IMG/VR virus record: IMGVR_UViG_3300037790_000007
Location: 1 to 41,989 of that record
Origin: a virus
Lineage: Duplodnaviria; Caudoviricetes
Reading direction: 5' to 3' (one strand)
Length of the DNA: 41,989 nt
Shown: piece by piece, positions 824-41,989 of the stretch
Layout: each line of letters begins with the position of its first letter
How positions within the stretch are numbered: position 1 is the stretch's first letter
Position numbers and translations under genes: made by a program
Notes under the pieces: generated by a model
Seen by the model: the letters and a program-made list of their open reading frames with translations, nothing else
Databases searched by the model: none
Told to the model about the DNA's origin: nothing

Positions 824-851
824 GCTATAATAAGAAAGGAGGCGATCGATC

Positions 852-1217
852 ATGCCGTTCGATTTTAAAAGCGTTTTATACGGGGCGATAATCACGGCGA
901 TCGTCGCCGGTTTGGTAGGAATGGTTTTTGCTCGCCTTAAGAAGTCCGCCCCGATAACCGAAGCCGAGGCGCAGAAAATCGCCGACGGTGCCGCTGAAAA
1001 AATGGGGGCGCAGATTCGAAAGGAATGCGCCGGGCAGCACGCCGAGATCAAGAAAGCGATCGAGGCCGCTACCCGAGCGAGTGACAAAAGAGACGACGAA
1101 GTCCGCGACGACTTTCGGCGACTGGGCGAAACTATGCTGGCCGCCGTAGACAAACAAGACGCGCGACTAACCGAACTAACGATGCACCTTTTAAACCAAA
1201 GGGGTGAGAAGCAATGA
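852..1217 (+). CDS. putative holin-like membrane protein (one N-terminal TM helix plus helical C-terminal domain)
   Basis: Strong RBS AAGGAGG at 836-842; hydrophobic VLYGAIITAIVAGLVGMVFA followed by RLKK; first gene of the ATGA-chained cassette containing the endolysin. The holin role is inferred from position. Confidence 0.55.
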   Translation: MPFDFKSVLYGAIITAIVAGLVGMVFARLKKSAPITEAEAQKIADGAAEKMGAQIRKECAGQHAEIKKAIEAATRASDKRDDEVRDDFRRLGETMLAAVDKQDARLTELTMHLLNQRGEKQ

Positions 1218-1666
1218 CCACCGTATTATTGATAGACGACGACGTCGTCAGCCTTGAAATGATCACCGAGGCAATGAAAGCGGAGGGCTACAACGCGATC
1301 GCCCTCACTGACCCGGAACGCGCGATCGAGGTCGCCGTAGAGTTAAAACCCGATTTTATTATTATCGACATAATCATGCCGAATAAATCCGGGCTTGAAC
1401 TTTGCCGGGACTTTAAACTCAACCCGGCCACCCGCGAGATCCCGATCATGTTTCTAAGCGCCTCGGACGACGTCAACCACGCGATCGCCTCGCTTCATTT
1501 GGGTTGTGTTGATTACTTGCGTAAACCGATACGCGCCGGGCAACTCGCCGACGTTATCCGCAAACATGATATGATCCGGGAGATCGCGCAAGTATGGCAA
1601 CCCGCCCGGCGCGAACTGCAGAGCATTGTCGAAAAGTATCGAAACCCGAGGGGATCCGCAGCATGA
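1214..1666 (+). CDS. single-domain response regulator (CheY-like receiver domain)
   Basis: VLLIDDD (D8-D10), PDFIIIDIIMP (phosphoacceptor D52), SGLELC, PIMFLSA (S82), DYLRKP (Y101, K104-P105); ~30-aa C-terminal helix, no output domain. Confidence 0.93.
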   Translation: MTTVLLIDDDVVSLEMITEAMKAEGYNAIALTDPERAIEVAVELKPDFIIIDIIMPNKSGLELCRDFKLNPATREIPIMFLSASDDVNHAIASLHLGCVDYLRKPIRAGQLADVIRKHDMIREIAQVWQPARRELQSIVEKYRNPRGSAA

Positions 1667-2172
1667 AAAAAGCCGACATAATTAAACGCATTATCGAACG
1701 CGAGGGCGGTTTTTCAGACCACCCGAACGACGCCGGGGGCGCTACCCGCTACGGCATAACCGAGAAGACCGCCCGCCGCCACGGCTACGAGGGCGACATG
1801 GCGGATCTACCTTACGATCTCGCCGTTTCGATATACTCAGGCGAATACTGGGACACAGTCAACGCCTCGAAACTTCCCGCCAACGTCCGCGAACAAGTCG
1901 TAGATTTTTGTGTTGTCGCCGGGCCATTCCAAGCGGGGCGCGCACTACAACGCGCGGTAAACGCTTTTAGCCGTGGCACTAAGTTAGCGCTAAAAGAAGA
2001 CGGGATCGTCGGCAGCAAGACCGCAGCGGCCGCAAAAGAGGCAGACCCGGACGCGTTGCCGGTTGCGCTTCGTTCTTACATATCACAGTATTTTATTGCA
2101 CTGGCCCGGACTCGCCCGACTAACCGCGCGTTTTTGGACGGCTGGCTGTCAAAAAGGGTAGAACTACAATGA
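1663..2172 (+). CDS. endolysin, glycoside hydrolase family 108-like lysozyme with C-terminal peptidoglycan-binding region
   Basis: EREGGFSDHPNDAGGATRYGIT, LQRAVN, DGIVGSKT, FLDGWLSKRV. Start reassigned to ATG 1663 (ATGA overlap with the receiver gene). Confidence 0.92.
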   Translation: MKKADIIKRIIEREGGFSDHPNDAGGATRYGITEKTARRHGYEGDMADLPYDLAVSIYSGEYWDTVNASKLPANVREQVVDFCVVAGPFQAGRALQRAVNAFSRGTKLALKEDGIVGSKTAAAAKEADPDALPVALRSYISQYFIALARTRPTNRAFLDGWLSKRVELQ

Positions 2173-2396
2173 AACTGTTTTTATTAACCGTGCTTAAAAA
2201 TTTGGGTGCCGCTTTTCTTACTGAAAAAATGGCAATTTGGGGCGCTCGCATGGCCGCCAGCTTTACCACCAACAAGATCGACGACAATGTCGTAAACCTT
2301 ATCGCGGCGGCGTCAGCTAACGACCTGGAGGGGATGCGAAAGGCGATCGAAGCAATCGCCAACGAGATCAAGACCAAGGACGGCCAAGGCCTCTAA
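2169..2396 (+). CDS. small lysis-cassette protein (holin- or membrane-disruptor-like, uncertain)
   Basis: 75 aa, ATGA overlap with endolysin, hydrophobic/amphipathic N-terminus, no lipobox Cys. Confidence 0.5.
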   Translation: MKLFLLTVLKNLGAAFLTEKMAIWGARMAASFTTNKIDDNVVNLIAAASANDLEGMRKAIEAIANEIKTKDGQGL

Positions 2397-2755: not shown

Positions 2756-3316
2756 TTAGAACGTCTTCCCGTGGGCTTTCGCCCTTTCTGATCGTTTATG
2801 ATCTTGGCGGTTTTTGTTGTACGCCAGCTTTTGTTCCAACGCCCCGAATAAATCGTAGTCGTTCCGCTCGGCAACAAAAATAATACTATCAACTAGCGTA
2901 TGGTATAGGTGTTCGATCGAACGTGCCGCCGTTGGTACTAATTGCGCCAGATGAACCTCGCGAGCAAAGTCGATAAGCGCGCCGTTTATGCCTAAGTGTT
3001 GCGCGCCGATCGTATCGTGTTCACAGAAAGGATCCACGCTCGCCCCGGCTTTTTCCGGGTTGTATTTAATGCAGTATCGCCCGGCAACGTCCAGCGTACG
3101 GATCAGCGCGTCGGCCAGTTCCACCTCGCCCATTTTGCGATCGGGCAGGTGGTCGTCGTTAAGGTCTTTTCGTTCGCCCTCGGTCGCTTCGGCTACTTCG
3201 GTGCTAACAAGTTGTAAGGTTTGTAATAGGCAACGGTTCGGATCGTCCCACCAGCCGACAGCCTTGTTTTGTTCATAGATACGGGCGGCCAGTTCGTTTA
3301 AATTAATGTTTGACAT
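2756..3316 (-). CDS. MazG-like nucleoside triphosphate pyrophosphohydrolase
   Basis: LVSTEVAEATEGERK...EVELADALIRTLD acidic ExxE/ExxD helices; C-terminal EQKLAYNKNR. Confidence 0.8.
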   Translation of the reverse strand: MSNINLNELAARIYEQNKAVGWWDDPNRCLLQTLQLVSTEVAEATEGERKDLNDDHLPDRKMGEVELADALIRTLDVAGRYCIKYNPEKAGASVDPFCEHDTIGAQHLGINGALIDFAREVHLAQLVPTAARSIEHLYHTLVDSIIFVAERNDYDLFGALEQKLAYNKNRQDHKRSERAKAHGKTF

Positions 3317-38939: not shown

Positions 38940-39748
38940 CAACAGCACGCCTTAAGCTACCCGAGATCACACAATCTCAGGCCAGTAAGCATTTAACCCA
39001 TAACGAAGCGCTCGCCATGCTCGACATATACGCGGGCGCGAGTCTTAACAGCGTGACGACCGCGACGCCGCCGAGCGTCCCGGTTGAGGGCAGCGCGTTT
39101 TTTGTCCCGGAGGGGGCGACGGGCGACTGGGCACCCAACGAGGGAAAGATCGCTTTCCGCTTTAATGCTGAATGGCACTACATCGACTTACCGACCGGGT
39201 GGATCTTCGAAATACTCGACGAGGAACGCGTAGTAGTTGCCCGCGCTTCGGGGATCGCCGACGTGGGCGGCGGTTCGTCCGGGGGCGGCGGTATCACGGG
39301 CAAAACTTACGTAGATATTAGCGGCGGCGACGCGACCGTGACAGACTTAAAACAGGTTTTACAGATCGGCGGCTCTTATACCGGCGGCGTTACGGTCACA
39401 TTGCCAGCCGTCGAGCAGTTTATCGTCGCAGCGAACGACAGTAACCAAGGCGTTACGTTATCCACCGGCGCGGGCGGTACTATCTACATCGAACCGGGCT
39501 ACCAGTTTGTCGTTTTCGGAGACGGCACCGGGATCCGCGCCGGTATGTCGATCGCGCCCCAAGGCTTAAAACTAAACGGCGATCTTATTTTGCCGATTTA
39601 CTCAACCGCGAGCGCGCCCGATCCAACGTCTCGTTATATGGTTGTAATTGGTGTTACTGACGGCGACGCGGGCGGCCCTTGCCTCGCAGTAAGTGACGGC
39701 GGATCGTGGAAACGCGTGGCACTAGGCGCGACAATTTCGGCAACTTAA
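38936..39748 (+). CDS. DUF2793-type tail fibre/adaptor protein
   Basis: [32 protein letters not shown]...VP.GATGDW; ATGA overlap. Confidence 0.82.
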
Positions 39749-39762
39749 GAGGATTTAATAAA

Positions 39763-41989
39763 ATGGCGGCAGTATTTAGCACAGACTTTTCAGAGTATGC
39801 AGAGGGGACGCGCCTTAAGGACGTGGAGGGGTGGACTGTTTTCGGTTCATTTCCGGCCAACATAAACGCGGCGAGAATAACAGGCCAAGAACTGGTAATT
39901 GATAGTTCTGATGGTACTGTAATGAGCTATAACACCGGGTCAACTTCCCATTACTCAGAAGTAAGAATGAAGTACCAGTTTGAAGGCTATTTTTTGGATG
40001 GGGGCCCCGCTGTAAGGGTTGACGCTAGGCTGAATTTTATAACTATCAGGCTTTCATCTGCGACCACCACACAAATATATTATAAAAATGGTAGCGGGGG
40101 GCAAATACTTCAATCTTACCCGAACACCCCCGTAGAGATAGGTGATATAGTTAGGCTTGAAGTAGATGGGGAAAATAACACGGTTGAATTATTTGTTAAC
40201 GGTGTTAGCGCGGGCACCCCGGCCGACATTTCTGCAATATCTAGCAACACAAGCACTAACGCGGGTATGTTTAGCGTTAGCAGAAACCCGTTCATAGATG
40301 ACCTAAATTTAGGCACGACGGGCGGCGACCTCATAACGCTTGACAGTGAGCCGTCAAGAAAGGTCTACGCCACTTTCGGCCCGACGTACAACTACACGAT
40401 AAGAGGGTCTTACGAAGGTGTGACGACGCCAACAGCTATTGAGTATCGAGTAGAAGAATTTGTGAGCGGTGCGGTTGTTTCTGACTGGGAAACGTTGGAC
40501 CCGTCACCTGATGGGGGCACTTTTTCCGGCGCTGTTGTTATCCCGCGCGGCCCTTACTATAAAATACTTGTTCGTTATGCTAATAACACAGCTATTCAAG
40601 GGTCGTCATCAAGAATTGGGTTCGGTGTAGTTATAGAGTTTGCGGGCCAGAGTAACACTGATAATATTTGGAATAGTCCGTTTAACGATAGCGCGATCGA
40701 CAATGTGGTTAAGTTTGACGGGACTAACTACCAGCAACCCGCCGACAGAGGTTGTGTTTACGCGGGGCTTAACGCCATATCCCAGTCCTTAAATTGTGTA
40801 GTGGCCGCGTATGAAACCGCAGTGGGCGCAACCGCCATAGAGCAACATTTGCCCGGTGGTGACAACTATGCGAACCGTCAGGCTGCGTTGACAGCAGCAG
40901 GAGGTAAGATTAACGCGTTATGGTGGGGGCAGGGTGAGACAAATGTCGGCACGCCCCAAGAGACCTACGAGACGAGATTAACGGATTTATACGCCGATAT
41001 TTTGTCGCGCACCGGGCAGAGTGAAGACACACTCGCGATGTTTATTGTTCAGTTAGGGAGAAATCCCGGCGGGGATGGTTCTTCGGACGGCTGGCAGGGG
41101 GTAAGAAACGCGCAATGCAATTTTTCCGAGAATAACACTAACGTTCACTTGTCGCACCAAACGATGGATTTGCCTATGACGGACGGGCTGCACCGGACTA
41201 ACGCCGGATATGTTTCAGAAGTTCTTCGATTCGCGGACTCTTTTAAATCGGTGTTTTTGGGTTCTGGCGGGTCGGGACGCGGCCCTATACCTCAAAGTTT
41301 TACTTATGGCGGTAATTTCTTAACGATTGCTTATGATTTAAACGGGAGTACCTCGTTAAGCGTGCCGGAGTCGTTCAAAGACATTGTAGAAGTATCGGCG
41401 GACGGGTTTAACTCTACTTTAAGCGCATTGTCGGCCGAGTACGTCGAGCCAAATTTAATAAAACTCGGCTTTGCGGATCCCATTACCGGCCCGGTTCAGG
41501 TTCGCAGCCACCAAGGCCAAGATTTTGACGTGAACAGCTTTGCTACCGGCGACAGAGAGTATAATTCTCAGCGCGTTATGGTTGAACCCGTGACCATAGC
41601 ACAAGCGGCGCAAGCGGACGTAACCAAGCCGGTGATCAGCTTGATCGGTTCGTCTTCGGTAACAGTGGCCGAGGGCGGTACTTACAACGACGCCGGGGCG
41701 ACGGCTTCGGACGATGTAGACGGAGATCTTACTTCCTCGATCGTCGTGGTGAACCCGGTAGACACTAACACGGTAGGCACTTACACGGTGCGCTATAACG
41801 TTTCGGACAGTGCGGGCAATGCCGCCGACGAAGTAACGAGAACGGTCGAAGTTGTTGAGGGCGCGGACGTAACCAAGCCGGTGATCAGCTTGATCGGTTC
41901 GTCTTCGGTAACAGTGGCCGAGGGCGGTACTTACAACGACGCCGGGGCGACGGCTTCGGACGATGTAGACGGAGATCTTACTTCCTCGA
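39763..41989 (+). CDS. 3'-truncated large protein (missing from the ORF track): beta-sandwich N-terminus, SGNH/SASA-type O-acetylesterase, tandem DUF5011-type Ig-like repeats
   Basis: AGAGGA RBS, ATG 39763, no in-frame stop to the window end. IEFAGQSN (GQSN 40645-40656), [15 protein letters not shown] (40921-40944), DGLH (41182-41193); repeats begin [12 protein letters not shown] at 41614 and 41863. Confidence 0.9.
41614..41989 (+). repeat. 249-bp coding tandem repeat (one full unit plus 127 bp identical partial unit; diverged unit at 1-195)
   Basis: 41863-41989 is identical to 41614-41740; the unit at the window start differs mostly at third codon positions. Confidence 0.93.

Follow-up and report, generated by a model that had tools for sequence, protein, structure and literature searches.

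The timing of phage lysis is known to be controlled by holin accumulation, membrane energy, and antiholin contacts. In T4 lysis inhibition (holin T and antiholins RI and RIII), soluble accessory proteins tune a single-transmembrane (TM) holin to an outside cue. On the side of signaling, the stalks of WspR- and PleD-type receivers switch partners on phosphorylation. A phosphorylation switch was not found among the known lysis-timing controls in the literature searched. Single-TM proteins with a cytoplasmic helical domain are described as controlling lysis in Mu (gp25; PMC9239132), F1 mycobacteriophages (LysF1b; PMC13056207), and N4 (pinholin gp63; PMC12642591), and the same plan is described for Lcc6 from the lysis region of LambdaSo (bioRxiv 2024.01.23.576932). 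The "Receiver domain" of N4 was considered as prior art and rejected, as the term names a region of the pinholin and not a response-regulator fold in the parts of the account consulted (PMC12642591).

Response-regulator receivers have been annotated in several Alteromonas phages. R8W gp48 and H4/4 gp44 are labeled "DNA-binding response regulator, PhoB," while V22 gp30 and A5 gp11 are labeled "CheY-like" class II auxiliary genes (PMC8228385, PMC7289586, and PMC10579305). In the sections of these publications that we consulted, the proteins appear as metabolic or host-recognition genes, with no tie to a membrane partner or to lysis. The records of siphoviruses R9Y1-3 contain a near-identical counterpart of the receiver gene studied here, called hypothetical, and neither "response regulator" nor "holin" occurs in the main text of the corresponding paper, which gives 40 min as the latent period, with bursts of 15 to 19, on the Alteromonas macleodii type strain (PMC9430817). 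In the literature searched (main texts, mostly open access, largely judged from search listings), we found no publication that connects a lysis cassette with a response-regulator receiver.

Here, we analyzed a 41,989-nucleotide stretch of phage DNA (the window) in which an orphan receiver gene is part of a lysis cassette. The window belongs to a marine Alteromonas siphovirus, with a cassette region 96.6 to 96.8% identical to those of the A. macleodii siphoviruses R9Y1-3, and the record behind it is a viral contig that is 95% complete and has a single receiver gene. The receivers of R8W and H4/4 are 46 to 48% identical to that of the window and have the same upstream TM gene; those of V22 and A5 are ∼20% identical to it and have the same kind of upstream TM gene. 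Our preferred reading, which we hold tentatively and short of probable, is that the receiver and its membrane partner constitute a phosphorylation-dependent accessory lysis regulator that would act through the partner.

Receiver and membrane partner in the lysis cassette

A sequence-only reading of the window had described four chained genes, and these were recovered as open reading frames on the + strand at 852..1217 (121 amino acids [aa]), 1214..1666 (150 aa), 1663..2172 (169 aa), and 2169..2396 (75 aa). The ATGA stop/start overlaps joining them can be read in the sequence at 1214-1217, 1663-1666, and 2169-2172, and open reading frames, Pfam, and TM prediction agree in placing the receiver gene between a single-TM gene and a GH108 endolysin gene. 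The overlaps alone are weak evidence, as late genes elsewhere in the genome are equally tightly packed, with two further −4 overlaps among the other late-gene junctions listed. The partner gene has a Shine-Dalgarno sequence (AAGGAGG) at 836..842 (+ strand). A TATAAT at 826-831 was considered as a possible conserved promoter and rejected, since it is missing in loci L007, L009, and L010 and was not called in a further scan.

The endolysin (1663..2172, + strand) combines the GH108 domain with a peptidoglycan (PG)-binding domain (PF05838, PF09374 [PG_binding_3], and phrog_315), and no SAR or TM segment is predicted in it. A longer start at 1594 was rejected, as relatives begin at the equivalent of 1663. 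The amphipathic 75-aa protein (2169..2396, + strand) matches phrog_402 weakly (E = 1e-3) and no family over the cut-off, and among phage records its relatives are found in R9Y1-3 only; it is possibly a holin-like or outer-membrane-step factor. No lipobox spanin was seen between positions 800 and 2450. Given an endolysin without a SAR segment and no visible spanin, the membrane step would have to fall to either the partner or the 75-aa protein.

Two genes on the − strand converge on the end of the cassette: a DUF7768/nucleoside 2-deoxyribosyltransferase-like gene (2368-2694), unannotated in the R9Y2 record, and a gene for a MazG-like pyrophosphatase (2756-3316). Open frames with Ig-like domains occupy both contig ends (39706-41989 and 1-434) and are probably a single tail-associated gene split by circular permutation; the frame at 39706-41989 additionally holds an SASA acetylesterase domain, and R9Y2 has other genes there. 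A scan of the GTDB genomes gave one locus (L064), on a near-identical phage contig of 42.7 kb that matches the viral record behind L009 in length and range; it is filed within a bacterial MAG, probably as a binning contaminant.

The partner (852..1217, + strand; 121 aa) is predicted to consist of an N-terminal TM helix (residues 8 to 26; 873..929, + strand; hydropathy, 2.36) followed by a helical cytoplasmic domain. The cytoplasmic location had been proposed from the sequence RLKK, and it agrees with the three positive charges behind the TM helix, which predict an N-out/C-in topology. The model is all helical but of low confidence (pLDDT, 55), and no Pfam, NCBIfam, or holin family match exceeded the cut-off. 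In an all-against-all comparison of 16 proteins, the partner is homologous to R8W gp47 (E ∼ 1e-9). Six of the eight invariant columns of a 23-sequence partner alignment fall within the best-conserved helix (residues 83 to 116; 1098..1199, + strand), a candidate binding surface. Its architecture makes the partner a candidate holin or holin accessory. The predicted topology reproduces the Mu releasin layout (N-out/C-in single TM, a cytoplasmic part of ∼70 to 95 aa, proximity to an endolysin). As for family membership, PF10805 (DUF2730) was matched by none of the 23 alignment members at an E value of 0.1, phrog_736 of gp25 was weakly matched by three of the 23 (best E, 0.006), hhalign gave a probability of 2% between the partner and Mu gp25 families, and the Atlas lead was only 0.85; the partner is thus not a DUF2730 member at the family level. 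A His near the partner's C terminus was rejected as a phosphoacceptor, being Gln in many homologues, as was a CheZ/CheC-type phosphatase motif, since none of these motifs is conserved in the 23-sequence alignment.

The receiver (1214..1666, + strand; 150 aa) scores 81 bits against PF00072 (cut-off, 30; E = 7e-23), and its AlphaFold model (pLDDT, 86; 16 sequences) has the (βα)5 fold. It had been taken for a single-domain receiver, which is correct in that the receiver is intact and has no output domain, but it is not a plain one: in the model, ∼30 extra residues lengthen helix 5. The long helix (residues 108 to 143 by DSSP; 1535..1642, + strand), the equivalent of the WspR stalk, carries a strongly amphipathic extension, with a hydrophobic moment of 0.69 at residues 121 to 138. 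By sequence, the closest PDB relatives are PleD (∼30% identity). WspR and PleD are among the top matches of a fold search with the model, WspR aligning over ∼146 columns that include the long helix, and, of the bacterial proteins compared, hybrid-kinase receivers and a GGDEF protein had the top single-domain scores. With such relatives, the protein looks like a PleD/WspR-type receiver and its continuous helical stalk minus the output. Pfam and the model agree that it ends after the stalk helix with no GGDEF domain, and it is thus not a diguanylate cyclase.

The published annotation of R8W gp48 (PMC8228385) would make the protein a PhoB-like transcription factor for phosphate starvation, and TIGR02154 (PhoB) is indeed its top NCBIfam match. 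That match, however, reaches 81 bits against a cut-off of 296 and covers the receiver part only; no Trans_reg_C (PF00486) or other DNA-binding domain was found, and a single helix past the receiver leaves no winged helix to support membership in the PhoB/OmpR family. The PhoB reading is largely refuted by this architecture, and we consider it extremely improbable. The architecture is at odds with the "PhoB auxiliary gene" label that R8W gp48 and H4/4 gp44 carry, and the module has in this respect been misannotated in print.

Phosphorylation site and kinase search

All the receiver residues listed in the sequence-only reading (D8, D9, D10, D52, S82, Y101, K104, and P105) are present, and the codon of Asp52, the predicted phosphoacceptor, is at 1367..1369 (+ strand). 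An alignment of 20 phage-type receivers, including six metagenomic proteins that are unplaced, shows D8, D9, D52, S/T82, and K104 retained in 18, down to 17 to 24% identity. Homologues lacking D52, which that reading had said would count against its proposal, do exist in part: D52, S82, and K104 are gone together from the receivers of V19 and R22Y, and these phages still keep the pair, the receiver length, and the helix extension. The receiver's pN is far below its pS against all three relatives compared, indicating purifying selection.

The persistence of the pair in V19 and R22Y fits an alternative in which phosphorylation plays no part: the receiver fold would serve as a soluble antiholin or scaffold, binding the partner via its long helix, and the acidic pocket would be retained for folding, metal, or another ligand. 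The strong amphipathicity of the helix extension is consistent with this as well. Against it, the full phosphorylation site has been kept in five lineages on long branches (up to ∼2 changes per site), which is unlikely under relaxed selection, and we regard the alternative as improbable. The retained site instead suggests that phosphorylation is likely under selection in five lineages and dispensable in the one where the pair has become uncoupled from the lysis strand.

The absence of a recognizable histidine kinase, noted from the open reading frames, was also borne out: the 95%-complete window has no HATPase_c or Hpt match, and neither domain exceeded the cut-off in any of five genomes (the window and four complete relatives). 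A lone weak match, below the cut-off, lies in an 854-codon frame of A5; HisKA was covered by a Pfam scan of the 47 window open reading frames. With neither a cognate kinase nor an Hpt protein in the genome, the receiver does not belong to a complete phage-encoded two-component system, and its phosphoryl groups would come from a host kinase or acetyl phosphate.

A receiver of this kind, with its partner as the membrane anchor, could also be a tethered phosphate sink or decoy that drains or jams a host phosphorelay and sits in the late operon only for its expression timing. Its target might be a c-di-GMP/surface-receptor pathway or an antiphage two-component system, for example Detocs, whose stand-alone receiver DtcB has been proposed as a buffer for the kinase (bioRxiv 2023.01.24.525353). 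The phage protein resembles the output-less receiver-plus-stalk part of PleD/WspR and hybrid kinases. In addition, the pair follows Alteromonas hosts across phage families and is on its own strand in V19 and R22Y. A sink requires the Asp that is missing in these two phages, however. Antidefense genes usually act early, whereas the receiver gene is translationally tied to lysis genes in five of six lineages. PADLOC gave just two matches, both weak, partial, and to receiver-like regions, and the DtcA kinase and DtcC effector of a Detocs operon have no counterpart here, the genome having no kinase and the neighbors being lysis genes. We consider a sink unlikely, if less so than a phosphorylation-independent factor.

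Pairing and distribution among phages

A tblastn search with the receiver over 50,697 phage records matched 135 records, 12 of them named Alteromonas. Most of the non-Alteromonas matches listed are unannotated fragments or large contigs with 25 to 36% identity, which we take to be bacterial regulators; the three inspected (E427, Y1, and Bhz63) are longer regulators in bacterial-type or nonlysis surroundings. Further searches added A5, XX1924, and R22Y, and the receiver-bearing cultured isolates number 11 (R9Y1-3, R8W, H4/4, V19, R22Y, PB15, XX1924, V22, and A5). The pair is thus present in 11 of the 15 cultured Alteromonas phages checked, which is not a census, as the 11 were found by carrying the gene; the receiver is absent from all four additional Alteromonas phages probed (AD45-P1, P24, R7M, and ZP6). 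It is absent also from two phages of Achromobacter, JWX (high-ranking by capsid) and phiAxp-1 (a DNA match in the endolysin), both of which have single-TM lysis-region proteins despite lacking a receiver. An Alteromonas phage can do without the pair, which is accessory.

As a control, generic receiver patterns retrieved 22 viral loci, three of which hold the pair's receiver family. The other viral stand-alone receivers sit outside lysis regions, as judged by reading the open reading frames of 15 of the remaining 19 loci, the last four being identical or near identical to loci read; of these, L030 alone resembled the pair in its layout. Multireceiver bacterial proteins swamped a profile search of 1.84 billion proteins, from which a single new family member (P0168) emerged. 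Scans of viral contigs with the PB15 and V19 receivers gave no matches, and a scan with the 23-sequence partner alignment found H4/4 only. As to a single origin of all phage receivers, a quick tree of 106 rows takes three changes. On a tree of 51 rows (the 106 minus 34 long, duplicate, or miscut ones, including the fused L030, and minus 21 further bacterial ones), the phage receivers lie on one side of a branch with a support of 94, under a long-branch warning.

The distance from the partner's stop to the receiver's start is −11 to +4 nucleotides in all 12 junctions measured, where the partners have 93 to 125 aa and combine a hydrophobic segment with a helical domain; pairing was assessed on phages other than the metagenomic partners P0169 to P0188. 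The sequence-only reading would have been weakened by homologues at random phage positions. Their positions are not random, as the receiver always stands behind a single-TM helical gene beside lysis-type genes in six lineages, but the endolysin that it had stressed is not a constant neighbor: Foturvirus has no adjacent endolysin, and elsewhere it is GH108, M15, or DUF5675. The constant neighbor is the membrane partner. This partner has a weak hydrophobic segment (1.2 to 1.3) in the V22/A5 group and a C-terminal one in PB15 and XX1924; in either orientation, the positive-inside rule predicts a cytoplasmic helical domain. The partners of the V22/A5 and PB15 groups have no detectable homology to that of the window (E, 0.016 or worse).

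Several comparisons suggest that the two genes travel together. The siphovirus receivers and those of Foturvirus group in a single clade (SH-aLRT, 100), and homology extends to their partners, so that, on sequence comparison, both genes of the pair are common to a siphovirus and an autographivirus. Homologues of the R8W partner in phage records are all (6 of 6) from R8W, H4/4, or R9Y1-3, each with a receiver behind it. Myovirus V22 and schitovirus A5 also have both pair genes in common. Between the window and L010, the pair genes have pS values of 0.72 and 0.66, compared to 0.26 to 0.44 for five flanking genes (endolysin, 75-aa gene, DUF7768, MazG, and polymerase); this deeper silent-site divergence of both genes indicates that they were transferred jointly and separately from the endolysin. 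In a separate comparison, of the window with L041 (1061-1513), the receiver alone has an elevated pS (0.42, against 0.08 to 0.15 for its neighbors), indicating that close relatives can exchange the receiver on its own as well. Judged from these alignments, the pair is a real, conserved two-gene module that has spread horizontally across sipho-, podo-, schito-, and myoviruses.

Across six lineages of Alteromonas-type phages, unrelated to one another, the pair adjoins genes of the holin-like, spanin, or endolysin kind, with neighbors that differ. The window and R9Y2 have the GH108 endolysin directly after the receiver. R8W and H4/4 have a holin (phrog_1356) upstream of the pair, a TM protein downstream, and no adjoining endolysin. 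An M15 peptidase and GTA_holin_3TM lie by it in PB15, and in the V22 group and A5 its neighbors are Rz/Rz1-like spanins along with a 2-TM protein and an endolysin. In V19 (L005:5727-6450) and R22Y (L036:2730-3465), the pair is inverted and tail to tail with a 2-TM protein and DUF5675, preceded in V19 by an AT-rich gap of ∼230 nucleotides. In phages that already possess a holin, the pair comes in addition. In XX1924 (L035:2438-2836), DUF5675 occupies the slot between receiver and holin that the M15 peptidase has in PB15 (L006:6384-6740), from which we infer that DUF5675 is an endolysin family. A multi-TM protein just ahead of the partner in PB15 (L006:5202-5669) and XX1924 (L035:1260-1703) is a possible third component in that lineage. 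In L030 (3998-4774), a single gene combines a receiver, a long helical region, and a C-terminal TM segment, in plan a one-gene version of the pair; the fusion overlaps a small hydrophobic open reading frame downstream of tail-type genes, with no endolysin seen nearby and no close relative in phage records.

In every lineage, the pair is also within a few genes downstream of tail-fiber or tail genes, and this position between tail and lysis genes cannot fully separate the readings. The tail-fiber region is described as a swapped host-recognition module, and the tail fiber, chaperone, pair, and downstream genes of A5 and V22 are described as one transferred block (PMC10579305). The receiver might then be an auxiliary signaling gene that hitchhikes with the tail-fiber module, with the TM protein an ordinary holin-like neighbor and no link to lysis; that single-TM helical proteins occur in cassettes without receivers and that tight overlaps are frequent in the window genome would both fit. 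The pair of R9Y2, however, is nearly identical to that of the window despite different upstream genes, and the gene order, partner before receiver, holds in all lineages, including where both are inverted, with a fusion existing in L030. Hitchhiking has little probability in our view, no more than a phosphorylation-independent role.

Candidate function and comparison with known systems

The reading of the pair as a phosphorylation-dependent lysis regulator is based on the intact site, selection, the lack of a phage kinase, the fixed pairing, the position at lysis genes, and transfer between families. The fused gene of L030, the lack of a DNA-binding domain, and the single-TM lysis proteins of Mu, F1 mycobacteriophages, and N4 also speak for it. 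A host phosphodonor would phosphorylate Asp52 of the receiver. The receiver's stalk, by analogy with WspR/PleD-type receivers, may then switch partners, such that the long helix of the phosphorylated protein would alter its binding to the partner's cytoplasmic helix, and the altered binding would advance or delay the membrane step of lysis. Speaking against this reading, V19 and R22Y keep the pair without the phosphorylation site, read from the strand opposite the lysis genes; the partner's TM segment is at the opposite end in PB15; and the partners of the V22/A5 and PB15 groups are not detectably homologous to that of the window. The receiver-less Alteromonas and Achromobacter phages, the nearness of tail genes, the lack of a visible endolysin by the L030 fusion, and the nonlysis positions of other viral stand-alone receivers count against it as well. 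A fuller version is conceivable but somewhat more doubtful, in which an orphan receiver derived from PleD/WspR would read the host kinase or acetyl-phosphate pool and gate a holin-class partner, as a lysis clock spread horizontally among phages of marine bacteria.

If the pair gates lysis, lytic phages would read host signaling to set their latent period and burst size, and if the lysis-clock version is true, burst time and size would be set by host physiology. This would matter for marine virus ecology, Alteromonas being a fast-responding copiotroph, and for programmable lysis. If the pair is instead a sink, it would represent a new way of jamming host two-component signaling or defense. For the regulator reading, V19 and R22Y are natural phospho-dead variants of the pair.

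Compared with described receivers, the window protein shares the receiver plus stalk with PleD and WspR but differs in being phage encoded and in lacking their GGDEF output. Like CheY, DivK, Spo0F, and DtcB, it is an intact receiver with no enzymatic or DNA-binding output; unlike them, it has an extra helix of ∼30 residues, no cognate kinase nearby, a fixed membrane partner, and a position in a lysis cassette. The partner, for its part, is like the Mu gp25 releasin, LysF1b, N4 gp63, and Lcc6 in its one TM segment, cytoplasmic helices, basic TM junction, and lysis-region location. None of these proteins is described with a phosphoreceiver, and the window endolysin has no SAR segment. In T4 lysis inhibition, the signal is periplasmic, whereas the input to the pair would be cytoplasmic phosphoryl transfer.
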